DNA of 64,000 bases from Clostridia bacterium. Lineage in GTDB: Bacteria > Bacillota > Clostridia > TANB77 > CAG-465. The DNA lies in the NCBI GenBank assembly GCA_045536565.1, contig JAZSNU010000011.1, forward strand, positions 57,732 through 121,731, in the 5' to 3' direction. Shown in pieces: positions 21,635 to 39,508 of this stretch. Made by a program: the position numbers and the translations under genes. The notes under the pieces are model-generated. The model saw only the letters and a program-made list of their open reading frames with translations, ran no database searches and was not told the DNA's origin. Numbering within the stretch: position 1 is the stretch's first letter; the number at the start of each line of letters is the position of its first letter.

Positions 21635-22981
21635 TTATTTATCGAATGTTAATGTTTGTGTAAAGAACTTGGTATCATAGTCAACATTTGGAACAATATC
21701 ACCTTTGTTGTTTTTCTTGAAGAATTTAAGAACTTCATATAGCCCAAAACCAGAAGGGTTTTCTTTTGTAGAATAGTCTTTTTCAAACATTTTAATTACA
21801 TCTATTTTACTAGGATTTTTAACAGAATTACCTATTATGATAACATCTTGTTTTCTATTTTCATCATAATACATTTCTAATTTTAGTTTTCTATCTTTGG
21901 ATTCTAATGCTGCTTCAATTGCATTATCAAGCAATATACCAATTATTCTTGATAACTCGAAACTTGGAAAATTAATTTTTGCTACATCGCATGCTATATC
22001 AAGAGAAAGTGTTAGATTATTATCTCTTGCATAAAGCATTTTACTAACTACTACACCATATATAGCAGGGTCGTTAATTACCTTTGGTGATAATATTGAT
22101 AGTAGGTTAATATCATTAAAACCATGTAATAGATTTTTACAATATGATTTTACACCATCAATATTTCCAACAGCTAGGTAACCGTTTATCGATTGAACCA
22201 TATTACCCATATCATGCTTAAAACCACGAATATTTTCATTTATTGTTGCTAATGCTTTATTATGGAGTTTTGTATTTTCTAATTCCAGTTCTGTATCTTT
22301 AAAAAGAGTCCTTTTTTCCATATACCAAAAAGAAAAAATAGAAACAACTAATAATTGAATTGTATTTATAATTACAAAAGTAGCAGGATAATTATAATCA
22401 TTTGAAAACATGAAGAACATTGTAGGCATTAATGTTAAAATAATTATAAGTCCTTCATATAATATAAATTTATAGTTGATTTTTCTTGTTTTAACAAAAA
22501 TTTTATTTAACTTATACCTAATTGCTTTATCTATGCAAAGAATAAAGATTCCATAAATTAGGCTAGTTATAATGCTAATAGTATAATATATAAATTTATT
22601 ATTAATAATACTATCCATAGAATCAACAAATACTGATAATATTATAACTGTTATCATATCAAATATAAATGGTATAAAAACACCAATTACAGAGATTATT
22701 ATGGATTTAATTATATTTGCATGAAATACAAAATGTGCTATAAGACAAGAGGTTATAATTATTATAGTAGGTTTTATAAAAGATACATCTATCAAATATG
22801 TATGTAGAAATGTTGCAAACAATGCAATTGGAAGCATATATAAAAAACTTACAAACAGTTTTTTATAACGGTAAACTTCTTTACATATAATGTTTGCTAA
22901 TACATAAATAGTATAAACTTGTGTAAATGATACTATAATTGTAGATATGATATACAATAAAATTTCTAATAATTTTTCCAT
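21635..22981 (-). CDS. agrC: AgrC-like GHKL sensor histidine kinase
   Basis: 6-7 TMs, FKHD, ILLDNAIEA, YSTK..GFGL. Confidence 0.88.
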   Translation of the reverse strand: MEKLLEILLYIISTIIVSFTQVYTIYVLANIICKEVYRYKKLFVSFLYMLPIALFATFLHTYLIDVSFIKPTIIIITSCLIAHFVFHANIIKSIIISVIGVFIPFIFDMITVIILSVFVDSMDSIINNKFIYYTISIITSLIYGIFILCIDKAIRYKLNKIFVKTRKINYKFILYEGLIIILTLMPTMFFMFSNDYNYPATFVIINTIQLLVVSIFSFWYMEKRTLFKDTELELENTKLHNKALATINENIRGFKHDMGNMVQSINGYLAVGNIDGVKSYCKNLLHGFNDINLLSILSPKVINDPAIYGVVVSKMLYARDNNLTLSLDIACDVAKINFPSFELSRIIGILLDNAIEAALESKDRKLKLEMYYDENRKQDVIIIGNSVKNPSKIDVIKMFEKDYSTKENPSGFGLYEVLKFFKKNNKGDIVPNVDYDTKFFTQTLTFDK

Positions 22982-23002
22982 AATTTATAATTCCTTTCTA
23001 TA

Positions 23003-23677
23003 TTAAGTTATATTTCCCATTGGACAAGAGATAGATTCGGTGAAAAACACTTTACTATCTAGTTTGTTAACTTCTGTTATTGCTTCGGTATTAATAATAT
23101 ATGATCTATGATTTCTAATAAAAATATCATTAGGTAGTGTTTTATAAATATTATTAAGTGACATAGAGGATTCATAAACACAGTTCCTAGCATGTATATA
23201 GGTTTTATTAAATTTTCTTTCAATAAAGAAAATATCATTTGCCCTAATAGATAGACCTCTTTTTATGTTTATAAATACTTTGTTTTCAGAAGATGAAAAT
23301 TCTTCTTTAAACCTATTAAATATAGCTGTAAGTGCAGAAGTTGAAATAGGTTTAAGTAAATAATCAAAAGTTTTACATTTGAAAGATAATAATGAATATT
23401 CGTAATGTGCAGTAAGAAATACTAAATAGAAATTCTTGTTTATTTTTCTTAAATCTGTTGCAAATTCAACACCATTTTTACCACCATTTTGAAAATCCAC
23501 ATCTAAAAATAATATATCTATATTGTTATTTTTAATTTCATCATAAATTATATTTTGGTTATCCGTTACAGTTGTAATTTCAGCATCTATATCTAGTTCA
23601 ATTATTATTGATTCCATAAGTTTTGCAATGTTTTCGATACTCTTTAAGTTATCATCACATAAAGCAATTTTTAACAT
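23003..23677 (-). CDS. agrA: AgrA-like LytTR response regulator
   Basis: CDD, FLDV, FLTAH, YLLKP receiver; FIRNHRSYIIN LytTR motif. Confidence 0.9.
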   Translation of the reverse strand: MLKIALCDDNLKSIENIAKLMESIIIELDIDAEITTVTDNQNIIYDEIKNNNIDILFLDVDFQNGGKNGVEFATDLRKINKNFYLVFLTAHYEYSLLSFKCKTFDYLLKPISTSALTAIFNRFKEEFSSSENKVFINIKRGLSIRANDIFFIERKFNKTYIHARNCVYESSMSLNNIYKTLPNDIFIRNHRSYIINTEAITEVNKLDSKVFFTESISCPMGNIT

Positions 23678-29087: not shown

Positions 29088-29933
29088 ATGTGTAAAGATC
29101 AAAATAAATATAAACTAAGTGATGAAGAACATGAAAAAAGGTATAAGACGATTGAGAAACGTGTATTTAGGAAAAAAATTAATGTTGATTTTCCAATTGC
29201 AGTTGTGGTAGGTGGTCAACCTGGTTCTGGAAAATCAGTTTTAATAGAACAAGGAATGCTAGAAATTGGAGAAGATAATACCGTTGTTATAAACGGAGAT
29301 GAATATAGGAAGTATCATACTAAATCAAAAGAAATATTACAAAATGATGAATTAGATTATGCGTTTTATACAGATGCAGATGTTAGGGATTGGACTAAAT
29401 CATTGTTTGACAAAGCAATTGATGAAAAATTCAACTTGGTTTTTGAAGGTACAATGCGTACAAAAACGATTTGTGATACATTGAAACGATTAAAGGAAAA
29501 AGGATTTGAGGTTAGAGTTAAAGCAATGTCAGTTAATGGATTAGAAAGCTATTTATCTACACTTATTAGATATGAAGAACAAAAAAATGCTGACGGACAT
29601 GGAAGAATTACTCCTTCAAAATCTCATTCTGATGCATATACAGGAATGCTAGACACATTAGAAGAAATTGAAAAACAAGGATATTTTGATAGTTTAGAGA
29701 TAATTACTCGTGCAGGAGAATGTGTTTATTCTCATACTTCAAACGGAGAAGTAAAGAGTAAGTATAATATGGGGATAAAAGAAACATTAACAAAAAGCAG
29801 AGAGGAACAATTACCAACACTTGAAAAGGTTAAAGAACAATTAGAATGGCTTACTAAATCTAAGGTGAATAGAGGTGAAGAACCTTATGATATAGGTGAA
29901 ATATTAAATATATTAGACGAAAAACAAAAATAG
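29088..29933 (+). CDS. Zeta/PezT-family toxin kinase
   Basis: GGQPGSGKS, INGDEYRKYH, FEGTMR, RYE...GR. Confidence 0.88.
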   Translation: MCKDQNKYKLSDEEHEKRYKTIEKRVFRKKINVDFPIAVVVGGQPGSGKSVLIEQGMLEIGEDNTVVINGDEYRKYHTKSKEILQNDELDYAFYTDADVRDWTKSLFDKAIDEKFNLVFEGTMRTKTICDTLKRLKEKGFEVRVKAMSVNGLESYLSTLIRYEEQKNADGHGRITPSKSHSDAYTGMLDTLEEIEKQGYFDSLEIITRAGECVYSHTSNGEVKSKYNMGIKETLTKSREEQLPTLEKVKEQLEWLTKSKVNRGEEPYDIGEILNILDEKQK

Positions 29934-29994
29934 TATGTACAAATTATGTAAATTATGGTATAATATATTAGGAATAATAAATATGGAGGTAATT

Positions 29995-30225
29995 ATGAGT
30001 AATAACGAATTAATGAGAAGGGATGTTGCAATTGAAATAATTGCAGAAATGATAGCAGATAATTCAATAAAGCTTGAAACTGAAAAAGATGAAAATCACA
30101 TTAAAGAATTGGAAAGTAAAATTGAAAAATTTGAGAGTGAAAGAAAAAAAATATATTTAGGTGACAAAGAAACGATAAACTATGTAATTGATGTTTATGG
30201 TTCATACCTAAAAGAGCAAAGATAA
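29995..30225 (+). CDS. Small helical protein, candidate zeta antitoxin
   Basis: GGAGG RBS, 76 aa, shares the terminator at 30227-30264 with the zeta gene. Confidence 0.55.
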   Translation: MSNNELMRRDVAIEIIAEMIADNSIKLETEKDENHIKELESKIEKFESERKKIYLGDKETINYVIDVYGSYLKEQR

Positions 30226-31905: not shown

Positions 31906-31972
31906 AAATATTTAAAATATAGCAGTAATTATTATTGCTATATTTTTTTTACTTTTAATTTAGTTTTAATGT

Positions 31973-32043
31973 TGTCAAAATATGTCGAAACTTGCTTAAA
32001 TATCTGTTAAATACTTGCAGTATTTTGTGTGTTTTGATATACT
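31973..32043 (+). promoter_or_regulatory. Tandem Spo0A-box-like sites and sigmaA promoter of the NRPS operon
   Basis: TGTCAAA 31973 and TGTCGAA 31983 (10-bp period); TTGCAG(32015)-17-TATACT(32038) with TG extension. Confidence 0.55.
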
Positions 32044-32081
32044 TTAAGTATTAGATTAGGAGCGGAATTGGGGGAAATATA

Positions 32082-35000
32082 ATGGAGAATAAATATGGTT
32101 TAACATTTCCACAAAAAAACATATTACTTGTTGAAGAGTTTTTTGGTAAATCACCAATAAATACCATAGTTGGTATATTTGAAATAAACAAAGAATTTGA
32201 CAAAGAAGTATGCGAAAAAGCTGTAAATAAAATGGTAGAAGTAAACGATGCGTTAAGAATAAAAGTATTCAAAGAAAATGATAATACATTTCAATATATA
32301 GAAAAGTATAATTATTTTAATGTTGATTATTTTGATTTAGAAAATGAGAATGCGGAAAAAAGAAAAGAATTAGAAAATGAACTTACTACAAAACCATTTG
32401 AAATATTAAATAGTCCGTTATATTATTTTGCAATTGTAAAAACAGAAAAAGATAAAGGACATATTTTTGTTAAACTACATCACCTAGTATCTGATGCATG
32501 GACATTTGGTAATGTAGCAACTCAGCTTGCTGAATATGTAGATATGTATACAAAAGGTGAAGATAATGAGATACAAAAGCCATCATATCTTGAATTTATA
32601 TCAACAGAAAATGAATATATATCTTCTGAAAAATTTACAAAAGATAAAATGTTTTGGGAAGAATATTTAGAAGGCTTTGAAGAACCAGTAGGTATAAAAG
32701 AAAACAACAATAAAACATTAATAGATGCTAAAAGATATACTGTAAGATTAGAAGAAAAACTAAATAATGATATAAAAGAATTTTGCAGGAGAAATAGAGT
32801 ATCTCCATATACTGTATTTATGAATGCACTAGCTATATATTTACATAGAGTAACTGAAAAATATGATTTTGTAATAGGTACACCAGTACTTAACCGTTCT
32901 AATTTTAAAGAAAAGAAAATGATGGGAATGTTTGTAAGTACAATGCCTGTTAGATTTAAAATAGACGAAAAAGAAACATTTTTAGAAATGTGTAAAAAAT
33001 CAAGCAGCGAAACGATGTCACTTTTCAGACATCAAAAATATCCTTATTCTATAATGCTGCAAGATTTTAGAGAGAAAAATAATGTAAGCAATAATTTATA
33101 TGAAGTAATGATATCTTATCAAAATGCTAGAGCAGAGTATTCTGATAATGAAAAATATTCTAGCGATTGGATATTTAGTACCAAGGTACAAGACCAATTT
33201 GCAATACACATAATGGATATGGATGAAACGGGAGTACTAGAAGTACATTTTGATTATCTAGTAGATTTGTTTGAAGATATAGAAATAGAGTATATTGCAA
33301 AAAGACTGTTTACTATAATTGACGATGGAATAAACAACAACAAAACAATAGAAACAATAGAAATAATGCCAGAAGAAGAAAAAAACAAAATATTATATGA
33401 ATTTAATGATACAAAAGTAGATTATCCAAAAGATAAAACTGTTATAGACCTTTTTGAAGAACAAGTACAAAAAACACCAGAAAATATAGCAATAGTGTTT
33501 GAGGGAAAAGAGTTAACATATAGGGAATTAAGTAATTTTATAGATAAAATTGCATATACACTCAAAAAAAATAATATAAATATAGGTGATAATGTTGCAC
33601 TTGTTTTAAAAAGAGGTTTTGAGATGATAGCATCTATGTTTGCTATTATGAAAATAGGAGCATGTTATATACCGATTGATGTAGAATTTCCAAAAGATAG
33701 GATAAAATACATATTAAATGATTGTAATGCTAAATTAATAGTTACAAATATAGATAATAACGAATACGATTTAAAAGTTTTAAACTTAAATTCTGTACAG
33801 GATGAAATTCAAGAAAAAGTAGAAAATGAATGTGCATTAGAAAATAATATATACATGATATATACATCGGGGTCTACTGGTAATCCGAAAGGGGTAATTA
33901 TAAAACAAAAGAATGTCGTGAATTTGTTATATTCAGCGATAGATGCAGTTGAATTGTATGATAATAGGAATACATATTGTGCATTATCAACATATTCTTT
34001 TGATATTTCTGTGCTAGAAATATTTTTATCTTTATGTTTTGGACATAAATTAATTATTGCTAATGAAAAACAACAAAAAGAACCATTAGAATTACGAAAA
34101 TTAATAAAAGATAATAAATGTGAAATATTTTTTATGACACCAACAAGAATGCAGATATTATTGAGTGGCGAGGATAGTATATATTGTTTAGAATATGCTA
34201 AATGTATTATGCTAGGAGGGGAAGCATTTCCTAAAAATATATTTGATAGATTAAGTAAAAATCATAAAATAAGAATATATGATGGATATGGACCAACTGA
34301 AATAACAGTATGGTCATCTGTAAAAAGAATAACAAATGGTGATGATATTAATATAGGAAAACCACTTAATAATACAACTGCATATGTATTAGATAAAAAT
34401 AATAGATTATTACCTATGTATGTAGAAGGTGAATTGTGCATAGGTGGTTTAGGTGTTGCTGAGGGATATTATAACAAAGATACCTTAACAAGCCAAAAGT
34501 TCATTATGTTCAATGGAAACAAGATATACAAATCTGGTGATTTGGTTAAAATGAATAGTTTGGGAGAATGTGAATTTTTAGGGAGAATTGATTCACAAAT
34601 TAAACTACATGGATTGAGAATAGAATTAGAAGAAATTGAAAAGGAAATAAATTCGTTTGATAATATAATTCATACAGCAGTTATTGTTGATGAGAAGGAG
34701 CGATTGGTAGCATATTATACATCAGATGAACAAATAAATGAAAAAAAATTAAAAGAATGTATATCAAAAAAATTACCTAAATATATGGTACCAAATTATT
34801 TTGTGAAAGTGGACAGATTTGAAACTAATTCAGTGGGTAAGATAAACAAGAAAATTTTACCAAAATTGGAAATAAAGAGAAATGTATCAGAAAAACCTAC
34901 TAGTAAAGTTGAGAAAACAATAGCAAAAGCAATATGTGAAATATTAGACTTGTCTGAAATAGGCATAGATGAAGATTTTTTTGAATTAGGATTAGATTCA

Positions 35001-36362
35001 TTGAAAGCTATCGAATTTATAAGTAAATTATCAGTTAAAAATATATCAGTAGCATATATTGATATTTTTAAAAATAGTAGTGTAAAACAATTAGCAAGTT
35101 TAGTAGAAAGTAAAAAAATAGAATACAAAATATTAGATAAAGATGTTGAAATAGAAAAAGTATTAGAAAATAATAAAAAAACAGAAAGTAAATTAAAAAC
35201 AAAAGAATTAGGAAATGTTTTATTAACGGGTGCAACTGGATTTTTAGGTTCTCATTTATTAGCAAACATAATAGATACAACAAACAGTATTGTATACTGT
35301 TTGGTTAGAGGAAAAAAAGAAGTTCCACCTGAATTAAGATTGAAATTAGTTTTACAGGAGTATTTTGGAGAAAAATATTCTGATTGTTTAGGAAAAAGAA
35401 TTATAGTAGTAGAAGGTGATATAGAATTACAAAATCTTACTAAGAAACCAGAAAATAGAATAATTTTATTAAATAATATTGACACAGTAATTCATTCTGC
35501 TGCTAATGTTAAACATTTTGGTGATGATGAAGCATTTTATAAGGCTAACATACAAGGTACTAAAAATATAACTGATTTTTGTGTTGAATATAATAAAAAA
35601 CTTATACATATTTCTACATTGAGTGTGTCAGGAAATATTTTAGAGGGTGGACATATTACTCAAAAATATATTAATGAGGAAATAGAATATGATGAAACGA
35701 AATTAAATGTTGGACAAAATCTAGAAAATATTTATGCTTTCTCTAAATTTAAAGCAGAAGAATATGTAATAAGAAAAATAAAAAATGGATTGAATGCAAA
35801 AATAATGAGAATAGGAAACATTACAGGAAGAATGAAAGATGGGAAATTCCAAATAAACGCAAATGAAAATGCATTTGTTGGAAGAATAAAATCTATTATT
35901 GATATGAGAATGGTACCAAATAATTTATATGATTTTGATATTGAATTTACACCAGTTGATAAATTGTCAGAAGCTATTATTTTGCTAAGTAAAATAGAAA
36001 ACAGTAATAATGTATTTCATGTATATAATATAAACCATGTGAAGTTAAATAGATTTATTGAGATATTAAATAGTATTGGATATCATGTAAGTATAGTTGA
36101 CAAAGAAAAGTTTGCCGAAAGAATATTAGAAATAAAAAAAATGAATGAATTTAAAACTATAAGTGGTATCGCAATAGATTTGGATGAAAATAACAACTTA
36201 CAATATGAAACAAATATAAAAATAAAATCAGAAAGTACATTAAATATATTGAAGAAGTTAGGATTTAAGTGGCCAGAAATATATGAAGAATATATTTGTA
36301 AGTTTATACATGAATTATGTGTTAGAAATATAATTGATAAGGGGGATAAAGATGAAATTTAA
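32082..36362 (+). CDS. Monomodular NRPS, C-A-T-R (terminal thioester reductase)
   Basis: C: HHLVSDA; A: YTSGSTGNPKG, YGPTE, GEL.IGG.GVA.GY, YKSGD; T: FFELGLDSL; R: LLTGATGFLG, YAFSK. Confidence 0.93.
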   Translation: MENKYGLTFPQKNILLVEEFFGKSPINTIVGIFEINKEFDKEVCEKAVNKMVEVNDALRIKVFKENDNTFQYIEKYNYFNVDYFDLENENAEKRKELENELTTKPFEILNSPLYYFAIVKTEKDKGHIFVKLHHLVSDAWTFGNVATQLAEYVDMYTKGEDNEIQKPSYLEFISTENEYISSEKFTKDKMFWEEYLEGFEEPVGIKENNNKTLIDAKRYTVRLEEKLNNDIKEFCRRNRVSPYTVFMNALAIYLHRVTEKYDFVIGTPVLNRSNFKEKKMMGMFVSTMPVRFKIDEKETFLEMCKKSSSETMSLFRHQKYPYSIMLQDFREKNNVSNNLYEVMISYQNARAEYSDNEKYSSDWIFSTKVQDQFAIHIMDMDETGVLEVHFDYLVDLFEDIEIEYIAKRLFTIIDDGINNNKTIETIEIMPEEEKNKILYEFNDTKVDYPKDKTVIDLFEEQVQKTPENIAIVFEGKELTYRELSNFIDKIAYTLKKNNINIGDNVALVLKRGFEMIASMFAIMKIGACYIPIDVEFPKDRIKYILNDCNAKLIVTNIDNNEYDLKVLNLNSVQDEIQEKVENECALENNIYMIYTSGSTGNPKGVIIKQKNVVNLLYSAIDAVELYDNRNTYCALSTYSFDISVLEIFLSLCFGHKLIIANEKQQKEPLELRKLIKDNKCEIFFMTPTRMQILLSGEDSIYCLEYAKCIMLGGEAFPKNIFDRLSKNHKIRIYDGYGPTEITVWSSVKRITNGDDINIGKPLNNTTAYVLDKNNRLLPMYVEGELCIGGLGVAEGYYNKDTLTSQKFIMFNGNKIYKSGDLVKMNSLGECEFLGRIDSQIKLHGLRIELEEIEKEINSFDNIIHTAVIVDEKERLVAYYTSDEQINEKKLKECISKKLPKYMVPNYFVKVDRFETNSVGKINKKILPKLEIKRNVSEKPTSKVEKTIAKAICEILDLSEIGIDEDFFELGLDSLKAIEFISKLSVKNISVAYIDIFKNSSVKQLASLVESKKIEYKILDKDVEIEKVLENNKKTESKLKTKELGNVLLTGATGFLGSHLLANIIDTTNSIVYCLVRGKKEVPPELRLKLVLQEYFGEKYSDCLGKRIIVVEGDIELQNLTKKPENRIILLNNIDTVIHSAANVKHFGDDEAFYKANIQGTKNITDFCVEYNKKLIHISTLSVSGNILEGGHITQKYINEEIEYDETKLNVGQNLENIYAFSKFKAEEYVIRKIKNGLNAKIMRIGNITGRMKDGKFQINANENAFVGRIKSIIDMRMVPNNLYDFDIEFTPVDKLSEAIILLSKIENSNNVFHVYNINHVKLNRFIEILNSIGYHVSIVDKEKFAERILEIKKMNEFKTISGIAIDLDENNNLQYETNIKIKSESTLNILKKLGFKWPEIYEEYICKFIHELCVRNIIDKGDKDEI

Positions 36363-38076
36363 TCTAATGGCAGGGATTTTATTATCAATATTAACAGTAA
36401 TATTATTGGTAATTATTAGTATGAAAAAAATAAAGGGGAAAAATGAGATACATTATAGATTTAATAGATTTTTACTTTTATTAGCAATTCCATTTATATC
36501 TTTACCTTTGCAAATAATTTTTGAGGATATTATAAATCCAATATATTTTGATTATGTTACATATATATTTACATTTTATGGACCAATAGAATTATTATTT
36601 GCAACAAGATTATATAAAGATAGTAAAGCGGATAATAAAAAACTTAAATTTTTATATATAATTTCAACCGTACTACTAATATTGTTATGGACTAATGATT
36701 TACATTATAGTTTTTATGAAGTATATTCTACAAAATTTAGTGAAACAATATACGGCCCTATATTTTATATTGCAACTATATATTGCTATATAATTATCAT
36801 ACTATCTATGATAATAACATTAATATCTTCAATAAGGCGTTCGGGATTTTTCTCAGCACAATCACTTATAATTATTTTTGGGGTATTAGTACCGGTAGTA
36901 GGTAACATATTGGGAGTTACAAAAATTATAAATATGACAATTTATATAACACCTATTTTACTAGCAACAACTGCAATTTGTTTTTATATTGCGATAGTAA
37001 AAATGAAAGCACTAAATGTTATACCAGTTGCTGTAAAAACAATAATGGATACAATGACAGATTCGTTTATTGTAATAAGTAAAGATGGAACAATAGCAGA
37101 TATAAATAGAACATGTATAGAAAAGTTTGCACCTTTAATGGAACTTAAACAAAATGATAATTTATATGAAAAGTTAGAAGGAAGAAAAACAGTAAAACTT
37201 GCTGATATAAAAGCGTTAGTTAAAGAGGCAAACGATAAAAAAGGAACTGTAACATCTGAATTTCATGTTGTAAAAGGTGATTATGATAAGTATTTTGAAA
37301 TAGATGTTCAACCTATAAAAGCAAAGTCTGGTAACGAATATGTAGCATCATTACTATTAATTAGAGATATAACACAAGCAAAAAGAGATATGGAAATAAT
37401 GACTAAAAATGAAAATCTAGTAATACTTGGAGAGCTTGCAGGAGGGGTGGCACATGATATAAATACACCTATTGCGGCAATCAAAAATGGAATAATGATG
37501 CTTAAAGATACCGTCGCTACTGATAATGAAAAGATGTTACTTACTAGAATGGATAGCTGTGCGGATAAGATAATTAATCTTGTAAACAGTATGAGAAATC
37601 AAATAAGAAACATTGGTAGTGATGAAAAAACAGAAGTTAATATTTCTTCTGTTATAAACGATACATTGATGATTGTTCATAATGAAACGATGAAGAAAGG
37701 TGTTAAAATTAACCTTAATATAAAAGATGAATTAAAGGTAATGGGAAATGCTACTAAACTAGGACAAGTAATAACTAATTTAATCATGAATGCTATACAA
37801 GCATATGAAAATAATCCTGGTATGATAGATGTAGATGTGTATAAATCTGATAAAAACCAAGCTATGATTATTGTAGAGGATTATGCAGGTGGTATACCAG
37901 AACATATAAGACCACACATATTTAAAAATATATTAACAACAAAAGGTGTATCAGGTACTGGTTTTGGTCTATATCTAGCATATTCAGTAATAAAAGGTGC
38001 ATTTGGTGGAGATATGCATTTTGAAACCGAAACTGGAAAAGGTACAAAGTTTGTTATAAGTATACCGCTTAAGTAG
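36352..38076 (+). CDS. Sensor histidine kinase with N-terminal 7TM region and PAS-like domain, no adjacent response regulator
   Basis: About 7 TMs with WTNDLH, AGGVAHDINTP H-box, NLIMNAIQA, D.AGGIP, TTKG..GTGFGL; start overlaps the NRPS stop by 11 bp. Confidence 0.9.
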   Translation: MKFNLMAGILLSILTVILLVIISMKKIKGKNEIHYRFNRFLLLLAIPFISLPLQIIFEDIINPIYFDYVTYIFTFYGPIELLFATRLYKDSKADNKKLKFLYIISTVLLILLWTNDLHYSFYEVYSTKFSETIYGPIFYIATIYCYIIIILSMIITLISSIRRSGFFSAQSLIIIFGVLVPVVGNILGVTKIINMTIYITPILLATTAICFYIAIVKMKALNVIPVAVKTIMDTMTDSFIVISKDGTIADINRTCIEKFAPLMELKQNDNLYEKLEGRKTVKLADIKALVKEANDKKGTVTSEFHVVKGDYDKYFEIDVQPIKAKSGNEYVASLLLIRDITQAKRDMEIMTKNENLVILGELAGGVAHDINTPIAAIKNGIMMLKDTVATDNEKMLLTRMDSCADKIINLVNSMRNQIRNIGSDEKTEVNISSVINDTLMIVHNETMKKGVKINLNIKDELKVMGNATKLGQVITNLIMNAIQAYENNPGMIDVDVYKSDKNQAMIIVEDYAGGIPEHIRPHIFKNILTTKGVSGTGFGLYLAYSVIKGAFGGDMHFETETGKGTKFVISIPLK

Positions 38077-38104
38077 TAGTACATAAAGTTGGAAGGATAT
38101 AAAA

Positions 38105-38851
38105 ATGAAACTTTTTTTAACTAGCTCCATAGGAGCAACAAAACATGAGAATGGAAAAAGAGTTCCTGCAAGAATGGATAATAGAAATTTATTTGTGGAT
38201 AATTTAAAAAAGGCAATTCAGGGAACAAATAAATTAGTATATATATCGGGTAATCCTGACTATAACACAAATGAAAAAGTAAAAATATGGTTTAATAATA
38301 CAATTAAATCATTAGAATACGAGAATATAAGATTTAAAGAAAATATATTTGTGGATTATAAAAATTCTAATAATATTTCTGATATTATAAAAGGGGCAGA
38401 TATAATTTTCTTATCGGGAGGAGCGCTACCAGTTCAAAATAATTTTTTTAATGAAATTAATTTAAAAGAATATATAAAAGATTATGATGGTATAATTGTA
38501 GCACAAAGCGCCGGTTCAATGAATTGTGCTGAAAATGTTTATATTTGCCCAGAAACCTTAGAAGAAGTAAATAATATAAATTTCATTAGGGAAGCAAAAG
38601 GTTTAGGGCTTACCAATATAAATATAATTCCACATTATAATAGCAATAAAGAATTTATGTTTGGCGCAAAGAGGTTTTATCAAGATATTATATATCCAGA
38701 TACTTTCAAGTTTTGTATATATATATTAACGGACGGTTCATATATATATATAAACGAAAGAGAAACTGTTGTATATGGTGAGTGTTATGTTTTTTATAGA
38801 GGTACTATTAAAAATATATGTTCAAATGGTAACGATATAATATTAGATTAG
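38105..38851 (+). CDS. Peptidase S51/dipeptidase E-like (class I glutamine amidotransferase fold)
   Basis: LSGG, QSAGS, GLGL...IPHY. Confidence 0.85.
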   Translation: MKLFLTSSIGATKHENGKRVPARMDNRNLFVDNLKKAIQGTNKLVYISGNPDYNTNEKVKIWFNNTIKSLEYENIRFKENIFVDYKNSNNISDIIKGADIIFLSGGALPVQNNFFNEINLKEYIKDYDGIIVAQSAGSMNCAENVYICPETLEEVNNINFIREAKGLGLTNINIIPHYNSNKEFMFGAKRFYQDIIYPDTFKFCIYILTDGSYIYINERETVVYGECYVFYRGTIKNICSNGNDIILD

Positions 38852-38920
38852 TAAATAAGAAATTCATGTATAAAACATGAATTCTTGTTTTTATATAGTA
38901 AATAATATCAAGGTGAGAAT

Positions 38921-39508
38921 ATGAAAGAAGTAGAAATAACATTAAAAGTAAAGGATAGTTTGGATGAATGTATTAAAAAATTAAAAAATCAAAATTTTAA
39001 AGTTATAAGAAATAGTGTTGTTGATGATTTGTATATGACACAAAATAAAAATATGTTAAATAAAGATAATATTGATGATATATTAAAAACCTGTGTGCTT
39101 ATTAGATACCTAAACGCAAACGGTAAAGAATTTAAAAAGATAACATATAAAAATAAAGTATATAATAATGGTAATATAGTTTCTGAGAAAAAAATAAATG
39201 TAGATTGTTTAGATTTAATAAAGGCAAGGGAATTGTTTGAAGCATTAGGTTTTGAAGAATTAGTTAGAGTAAAATATATAGTAACAGTTCTTTCTGATGG
39301 TAATAAAGAATTCGCTTTTCAAGAGGTTGAAAATTTAGGCCTTTTAGTAGAATATGAAAGCACTAAAAATATGGATAATTGTACCGATGAAGAAATGCTT
39401 AAGGAAAAAGATAATATGATAGAAGAAATTATAAAAACTGGCATATATGTTGATGAAAAGTCGGATGTAAAGAAAGCATATGAGTTAATAAAAGACAGTA
39501 TGTTATAG
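38921..39508 (+). CDS. CYTH-domain protein
   Basis: EVE..LKV, D.Y, ITYK, LFEALGF, VENLGLLVEYE. Confidence 0.8.
   Translation: MKEVEITLKVKDSLDECIKKLKNQNFKVIRNSVVDDLYMTQNKNMLNKDNIDDILKTCVLIRYLNANGKEFKKITYKNKVYNNGNIVSEKKINVDCLDLIKARELFEALGFEELVRVKYIVTVLSDGNKEFAFQEVENLGLLVEYESTKNMDNCTDEEMLKEKDNMIEEIIKTGIYVDEKSDVKKAYELIKDSML

Follow-up and report, generated by a model that had tools for sequence, protein, structure and literature searches.

A nonribosomal peptide synthetase and a seven-transmembrane histidine kinase that vary together in small-genome gut Clostridia: a candidate signal synthase and receptor

The window analysed here, a 64,000-nucleotide stretch of contig JAZSNU010000011.1 from the genome of a Clostridia bacterium (GCA_045536565.1, below G000), contains an operon in which the gene for a nonribosomal peptide synthetase (NRPS) is followed by that for a histidine kinase with a seven-transmembrane (7TM) sensor. 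This pairing is strongly conserved across the sampled order of small-genome Clostridia. The variable unit within the pair is a single contiguous block that comprises the adenylation (A), thiolation (T) and reductase (R) domains of the NRPS, in some forms with a further condensation (C) domain and module, together with the membrane sensor of the kinase [A-T-(C-A-T)-R + 7TM]; it comes in discrete types, both across genera and among near-conspecifics. Judged from these sequence patterns, the NRPS and the kinase are probably a cognate signal synthase and receptor.

Conservation of the NRPS–kinase pair

The genome of the window comprises 1,129,409 bp in 22 contigs (completeness 100%, contamination 0.93%). 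We sampled 401 genomes from its order of uncultured Clostridia with small genomes (1.1–2 Mb), the related records being metagenome-assembled genomes (MAGs). With matches accepted at E ≤ 1e-40 for the kinase and E ≤ 1e-30 for the NRPS, the kinase query matched 186 of the 401 genomes and the NRPS query 332, 10 of the latter more weakly than E 1e-60. We fetched 80 loci, 60 around kinase matches and 20 around NRPS matches without a listed kinase. An NRPS gene lies directly upstream, on the same strand, of 74 of the 84 kinase open reading frames (ORFs) in these loci, with a median gap of 5 bp and a gap of at most 40 bp in 68 of the 74 pairs. The pairing was seen in 54 of the 60 kinase-centred loci (the upstream DNA of L084 is too short to judge), and a kinase gene follows the NRPS gene in all 20 NRPS-centred loci and in 4/4 loci from the initial search of the related genomes' contigs. 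The first-pass annotation of this DNA had proposed that the two genes form one signalling system and would thus be linked in other genomes too, and the linkage is borne out by these counts.

In the family of the window (f1), both genes occur in 54 genomes, the kinase only in 4, the NRPS only in 3 (2 of them weak matches) and neither in 17. The kinases of the 20 NRPS-centred loci (L104–L123) represent a second sensor type, class B. They are 635–681 aa long and have a polytopic N-terminus of ~360 residues that belongs to no Pfam family, with a HAMP domain in most copies. The cores of the f1 class-B copies (L122 and L123) are 53–56% identical to the class-A core of G000, which suggests that sensor modules have been exchanged on lineage-specific cores.

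Extra or solitary 7TM kinases without an NRPS were also observed (L049, L055, L077 and L083; L076 and L080–L082). Several of these carry sensor types near to NRPS-linked ones from other species, and it is possible that they are eavesdropping receptors. L055 is labelled solo in the transmembrane (TM) and core trees, though it is not a kinase-only locus. In-frame stops were found in the kinase gene of two relatives, G146:C47 (TAG) and G186:C11 (TAA), and represent either decay or MAG assembly errors.

Co-variation of NRPS specificity and kinase sensor

The kinase of the window is a mosaic. Compared with the three closest congeners, its 7TM sensor is 37–43% identical, its PAS-like linker 81–92% and its DHp-CA core 86–94%, with the switch at about residue 220; the syntenic housekeeping genes are 60–92% identical. 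In the NRPS, the identity to congeners is 0.70–0.75 for the C domain and 0.32–0.36, 0.31–0.35 and 0.37–0.43 for the A, T and R domains, respectively. Codes for the A domains were read as nine specificity-pocket residues per domain in PheA numbering, and these also differ among congeners (DILFMGGVW in G000, DALFMGLVV in G057 and DVFWFGCAF in G130, while G136 and G180 are bimodular).

Kinase pairs with the same code have the higher TM identity in every bin of cytoplasmic identity. At a core identity of 0.6–0.7 the TM identity is 0.62 for same-code pairs (n = 9) vs 0.45 for other pairs (n = 187), and at 0.9–1.0 it is 0.92 (n = 6) vs 0.50 (n = 3). The effect of a shared code on TM identity was +0.23 by regression and was matched by 0 of 2000 label permutations, a result that, like the p-values given next, overstates the support because the tree groups were set post hoc and the genomes are related. 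The kinase core and the C domain (C1) give trees that track genera, whereas those of the 7TM sensor and the R domain track the code across genera. By approximately unbiased (AU) tests, the genus clade is rejected on the 7TM data (p 9e-52). The core tree contains that clade at a support of 100, and two clades with a shared code are rejected on the core data (p 1.7e-9 and 8e-6).

Types also segregate among very close relatives. A large protein collection held 15 kinases with cores ≥85% identical, the query included, and their sensors fall into 8 types; in one near-conspecific kinase the core is 99% identical and the sensor only 39%. Contigs of run X1 match the window at ~95% up to position 33520 and again from 36979, with 1.7–1.8 kb unlike the window beyond each point, as far as the contig-covered parts of the window go, which are the only ones that count in this comparison. 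One of these contigs may be the source of the 99%/39% protein. Both break points lie at domain junctions, C/A in the NRPS and 7TM/PAS in the kinase; the junction of the 7TM domain has the conserved sequence KALNVIPVA. Synthase specificity part and sensor thus co-vary as types while the flanks follow the species, as in a pair of the agr kind.

Operon structure and surroundings

Positions 31973–38890 of the window form one bounded transcription unit, which consists of the C-A-T-R NRPS gene, the 7TM/PAS kinase gene and an S51 peptidase-like gene. Its features, all on the + strand, are:

31914–31953, +, terminator hairpin with U-run (−13.4 kcal/mol, z −4.7), which ends the upstream gene proS (identified by Pfam) and forms the left boundary of the unit
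31973–31989, +, two 0A-like boxes from a motif scan, TGTCAAA at 31973–31979 (1 mismatch) and TGTCGAA at 31983–31989 (perfect)
32015–32043, +, candidate sigma-A-type promoter, TTGCAG-17-TGaTATACT with TG extension, read from the sequence
32082–36362, +, C-A-T-R NRPS of 1426 aa (Pfam, NCBIfam, motifs)
32085–33395, +, N-terminal condensation domain of the NRPS (Pfam), 70–75% identical to congeners
33520–36979, +, hypervariable block, i.e., A, T and R domains of the NRPS and 7TM sensor of the kinase (identity profiles, trees, contig break points)
36352–38076, +, histidine kinase of 574 aa (Pfam, motifs)
38105–38851, +, S51-family peptidase-like gene (Pfam), co-transcribed by position
38853–38890, +, terminator hairpin with T-rich tail (folding −13.4 kcal/mol, z −4.8), the right boundary of the unit

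The likely start of the kinase (ATG at 36352, preceded by the sequence AAGGGGGA, which resembles a ribosome binding site) comes before the NRPS stop at 36360–36362, and this gives an overlap of 11 bp. The NRPS and kinase genes are one operon and translationally coupled. The kinase stop (38074–38076) is separated from the S51 start at 38105 by 28 bp. This arrangement and the terminator after it had been described in the first-pass annotation and were confirmed by Pfam, coordinates and folding. The same holds for the tandem 0A-like boxes, of which the perfect one sits 25 bp upstream of the candidate promoter, and for the lack of a response regulator, exporter or phosphopantetheinyl transferase (PPTase) inside the unit, based on Pfam and NCBIfam searches of the neighbouring genes. 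The unit is flanked by proS upstream, and CYTH-like, GreA-like and hisS genes are its further neighbours. The promoter is named as a candidate because similar matches are frequent in the A+T-rich DNA of the window. A consensus terminator scan of the window returned no + strand site, and the hairpin at 38853–38890 escaped it because its stem is A+T-rich. The Rfam scan of the window gave one tRNA only and no riboswitch near the operon.

The gene directly past the operon terminator (38921–39508) resembles CYTH/class IV adenylate cyclases, with a score of 42.6 bits to NCBIfam cyaB (cut-off 57.95) and no Pfam match; among the 80 related loci it has a single distant homolog (33% identity). Upstream, at 29088–30225, a gene of the zeta-toxin family (281 aa, Pfam 144 bits) precedes a 96-aa ORF without a family, and there is a perfect 0A box 88 bp upstream. 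These two genes and proS are missing from the syntenic place in congener G130. One X1 contig joint links window position 32377 to 38932 through 36 foreign letters; it may stem from a variant that lacks the bulk of the operon or from a short chimeric match.

The S51 peptidase-like protein scores 31 bits to Peptidase_S51 (PF03575; cut-off 23.9) and has a SAGS motif, and no match was found in NCBIfam or among PDB sequences. The gene was found only in G000 and in congener G136, i.e., in 1 of the 80 loci (L044:10497–11244), where it is split into two ORFs, which represents either decay or a MAG assembly error. It is not a conserved part of the cassette, and the role as a signal quencher that had first been ascribed to the hydrolase is not supported.

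The synthetase and its predicted product

The NRPS has the C, A, T and R domains in the order of a modular NRPS with reductive release, and the catalytic motifs are all intact: HHLVSD (C), YTSGSTGNPKG (A), LGLDS (T), and GATGFLG and YAFSK (R). Pfam places Condensation at residues 2–438, AMP-binding at 458–797, PP-binding at 946–1007 and NAD_binding_4 at 1048–1299. The NCBIfam thioester-reductase domain at residues 1045–1412 scores 194 bits, slightly below its cut-off of 213. The best NCBIfam matches of the protein are AusA module 2 (782 bits) and MxcG (510 bits, full length), both far under the cut-offs. Bimodular forms (C-A-T-C-A-T-R) are common in f1. Many codes of the family resemble those that we take to be the textbook codes for Thr (DFWNIGMVH), Gly (DILQLGVIW), Pro (DVQFIAHVV) and Val (DALWLGGTF).

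The C domain is N-terminal in the first module with no carrier upstream of it, which is the position of a lipo-initiating starter C domain. The acyl carrier protein (ACP) and the T domain of the NRPS are the only carrier proteins in the G000 genome, and the acyl donor of the C domain is therefore limited to acyl-ACP or acyl-CoA. Acylation by a starter C domain, as had been proposed from the first reading of the operon, thereby gains support by elimination.

In the mechanism that we propose, the C domain would acylate the T-bound amino acid, drawing on acyl-ACP or acyl-CoA. Being constant within the species, this domain would attach the same acyl chain in all types, and the type-specific A domain would select the amino acid. 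The R domain would then free a small lipophilic N-acyl amino aldehyde or alcohol, which might pass the membrane without an exporter. This product would be bound by the 7TM bundle in the membrane, where type-specific residues would recognise its amino-acid part, and the kinase core would in turn phosphorylate a regulator.

The kinase and its candidate partners

The kinase is of the HisKA type with a HisKA_7TM sensor according to Pfam (HisKA_7TM, PF16927, 90 bits; HisKA, 37 bits; HATPase_c, 70 bits). The 7TM region (~36379–37026) is followed by the PAS-like linker, HisKA (37426–37596) and HATPase_c (37747–38070). The motifs AHDINTP (with the H-box His), NLIMNAIQA (N box), DYAGGI (G1 box) and GTGFGL (G2 box) are intact. 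No PAS domain was called by Pfam in the window copy, and precomputed PAS calls exist for many homologs. In the full-text literature searched, HisKA_7TM is mentioned in two papers, only as a census entry.

Only three histidine kinases were found in G000: a classical one paired with an OmpR-type regulator, an AgrC-like one paired with a LytTR regulator, and the NRPS-linked one, which is the sole kinase without an adjacent regulator. Conversely, regulators with no kinase gene beside them are Spo0A, a small REC protein (C15:140258–140665), a REC-HD-GYP protein and a REC protein whose C-terminus is kinase-like but degenerate (below REC-pseudokinase). The genome also retains two GGDEF proteins and a second HD-GYP protein. 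The AgrC/ComD-like kinase gene (GHKL HATPase_c_5, SPOB_a) adjoins its LytTR gene at 21635–23677 of the window (− strand), and the two make up a second quorum-sensing-like pair, of the peptide type, 8 kb from the NRPS operon.

Outside f1, a REC-HD-GYP gene lies just downstream of the kinase gene in 12 of 17 class-A loci of family f2 and in 12 of 20 class-B loci. In 4/4 genomes tested, the adjacent gene is the sole full-length match to the orphan REC-HD-GYP protein of G000, and the phospho-acceptor is Asp in 22/22 linked copies. Within f1 the REC-HD-GYP gene is unlinked and occurs in 61/61 genomes, cassette-free ones included; the acceptor is Asn (29) or Ser (1) in the 30 copies inspected (L124–L153), with the HD and GYP motifs kept. 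A phosphorylatable REC-HD-GYP partner, as in the Rpf system, is thus present in the sister families and not in G000 or f1. The ancestral partner of the kinase would be the REC-HD-GYP regulator, with cyclic di-GMP (c-di-GMP) output. The G000 REC-HD-GYP protein (C12:90937–91962, equal to L008:2938–3963, − strand) is in itself a candidate pseudo-receiver c-di-GMP phosphodiesterase.

Since Asn replaces the acceptor Asp of the f1 REC-HD-GYP protein, the REC-pseudokinase (G000 C17:9336–10373, equal to L007:2337–3374, − strand) is the best candidate partner in f1. Pfam recognises only REC in this protein, and the kinase-like features of its C-terminus were picked up by a language model. The H-box His is replaced by Glu or Gly and the ATP lid is absent, while the acceptor Asp is kept. 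In shape the protein resembles a Spo0F–Spo0B fusion, but without the conserved His. It was found in 49/49 kinase-positive vs 1/12 kinase-negative f1 genomes, and its gene adjoins the kinase gene in L084–L086 and L100.

An orphan kinase that feeds Spo0A, as suggested in the first-pass annotation, is not supported in that form. Spo0A is present in 391 of the 401 genomes, including cassette-free ones, so its phyletic distribution does not discriminate, and the gene context favours the other regulators. We found 0A boxes within 300 bp of 11/71 NRPS starts vs ~0.8 expected from the genome-wide density in G000, and the boxes of the window are thus not a general feature of these genes. G000 has 42 perfect 0A boxes and 3 tandem sites such as the one at 31973–31989. 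Of the perfect boxes 21 are intergenic; one precedes spoIIAA and the others precede unrelated genes (e.g., nrdD, a cation-efflux gene and a traX-like gene), so the motif alone says little. Spo0A probably acts upstream of the cassette through these boxes, rather than being a demonstrated target of it.

Alternative explanations

The main rival of a synthase–receptor relationship is hitch-hiking, in which a contiguous block is carried along by conserved recombination anchors on either side. Here the kinase would sense an unrelated membrane or metabolic cue, and the block would co-vary only because homologous recombination in the C domain and in the kinase core, which are conserved, moves it as a whole. 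The variable parts do form one contiguous stretch, and a single recombination block could therefore yield the pattern without any ligand recognition; the TM similarity also follows the NRPS module nearest to the kinase gene, and NRPS-less kinases exist. However, congeners differ in their sensor and A-T-R types roughly as much as members of different families do, with flanks that are 70–94% identical, and the types recur across genera. Alleles this old would need selection to persist. The position of both break points at domain junctions and the retention of the pair in streamlined genomes of 1.1–2 Mb also speak against mere linkage, which we regard as unlikely. A different role for the product is that of an outward-acting metabolite, e.g., a protease-inhibiting peptide aldehyde directed at the host or at competitors, with the kinase sensing what its own cell makes, for feedback or self-protection and not for communication between cells. 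The passage of PMC8210680 that cites Guo et al. (2017) has reductase-terminated NRPSs of gut commensals producing dipeptide aldehydes that inhibit host proteases, and the common bimodular forms of the family would fit such products. Yet discrete, co-varying synthase and sensor types in near-conspecifics are typical of private signals, and NRPS-less kinases with sensor types near to the NRPS-linked ones of other species would suit the sensing of others' signals, which makes this role quite improbable.

Most doubtful is the full circuit of the first-pass annotation, in which the NRPS makes the signal, the kinase receives it and phosphorylates Spo0A, and the S51 protein acts as quencher. It has in its favour that the kinase is the only one without an adjacent regulator in a 100%-complete genome that has Spo0A, that the promoter has 0A boxes, which are overrepresented ahead of NRPS genes, that the spoIIAA promoter bears such a box, and that the S51 gene is co-transcribed by position. 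The near-absence of S51 from the related loci, the presence of Spo0A irrespective of the cassette, the ties of the kinase to other regulators by adjacency and co-occurrence, and the intergenic 0A boxes ahead of unrelated genes all argue against it, and we consider it very unlikely as a whole. What stands of the proposal is the synthase–receptor part, since the linkage is kept and the sensor co-varies with NRPS specificity, whereas the quencher and the Spo0A-feeding kinase are unsupported.

Several observations also weigh against the synthase–receptor relationship itself. All support for it is computational. Kinases without an NRPS occur in five loci and as 3 second copies. The groups in the trees were named after the first tree had been seen, and the related genomes are not independent; the kinase-negative f1 genomes belong mostly to one genus, so that few independent losses underlie the co-occurrence with the REC-pseudokinase. 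On the chemical side, the comparison with PDB sequences fails to separate a starter from an elongation C domain, with scores of 121 bits to BacC and 95 bits to TycC (both elongation C domains) and ~72 bits to the RzmA starter C domain. The sole PPTase of the G000 genome is of the AcpS type. The codes depend on the PheA numbering, and we know of no code that matches that of G000. Finally, an autoinduction loop is not evident, because no regulator of the pathway has a DNA-binding output.

Comparison with known signalling systems

The cassette resembles staphylococcal agr in that signal-producing and signal-sensing genes share one operon, and both have a contiguous hypervariable block (synthase specificity part and membrane sensor of the kinase) between conserved flanks, with types within a species. 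In agr, however, AgrB processes a ribosomal peptide into the signal, where the cassette has an NRPS, and AgrA is a LytTR DNA-binding regulator that closes the autoinduction loop, while no DNA-binding regulator is linked to the cassette. With the Rpf/DSF (diffusible signal factor) system of Xanthomonas (RpfF, RpfC and RpfG) it shares a lipid-like diffusible signal, which is predicted here, a polytopic membrane kinase and a REC-HD-GYP regulator, the gene for which adjoins the kinase gene in 24/37 sister-family cassettes. The Rpf/DSF system uses a crotonase-type synthase and a hybrid kinase instead of an NRPS and a non-hybrid kinase, and, unlike there, the HD-GYP regulator in the window's family is encoded apart from the kinase and has no acceptor Asp. 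CqsA/CqsS and LuxM/LuxN of Vibrio likewise combine a dedicated synthase with a membrane kinase, which in their case binds a hydrophobic autoinducer within the TM bundle, but their synthase chemistry is different, their hybrid kinases feed a phosphorelay and no pherotype block is reported for them.

On the biosynthetic side, the reductase-terminated NRPSs of gut clostridia, MxcG and AusA share the C-A-T-R or C-A-T-C-A-T-R architecture with reductive release. Work on their products has dealt with host protease inhibition or with a siderophore and not with signalling, and we know of no sensor kinase or pherotype structure linked to these clusters. Clostridial orphan sporulation kinases that act on Spo0A are similar in having no adjacent regulator, and the cassette kinase is the one unpaired kinase of a genome that has Spo0A and resembles that of a spore former. 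Unlike them, it tracks the REC-pseudokinase and, in the sister families, REC-HD-GYP, not Spo0A.

We found no description of NRPS–kinase or NRPS/HD-GYP cassettes in the full-text literature, a search in which supplements, possibly listing such clusters, were outside the scope. In our reading the cassette is probably a synthase–receptor quorum-sensing pair with pherotypes, in which synthase class, receptor domain and output would all be unusual. A broader picture can be put forward tentatively, and we would not yet bet on it. The cassette may represent an undescribed class of quorum sensing, in which non-ribosomal N-acyl amino or dipeptide aldehydes or alcohols serve as strain-private signals that are read by co-inherited polytopic kinase sensors. 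The types would be ancient pherotypes maintained throughout this order of gut Clostridia, whose members are uncultured and have reduced genomes. Ancestrally, the system would have been wired to c-di-GMP via HD-GYP, and in f1 it would have been rewired to the REC-pseudokinase, which may gate entry into sporulation.

Significance

Next to nothing is known of how most gut Clostridia, which are uncultured, communicate, and the role of their common reductase-terminated NRPSs is debated. The genes described here are widespread, with an NRPS match in 332/401 genomes and a kinase behind the NRPS in every NRPS-centred locus fetched, and this in streamlined organisms that retain very few regulators (G000 has three kinases). 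If the A-T-R-7TM block does encode a matched signal and receptor, ligand–receptor pairs could be read directly from sequence, and HisKA_7TM would gain its first ligand class as a sensor domain. The types would then constitute a natural library of orthogonal small-molecule sensors and would offer a handle on the strain-level social structure of the gut.

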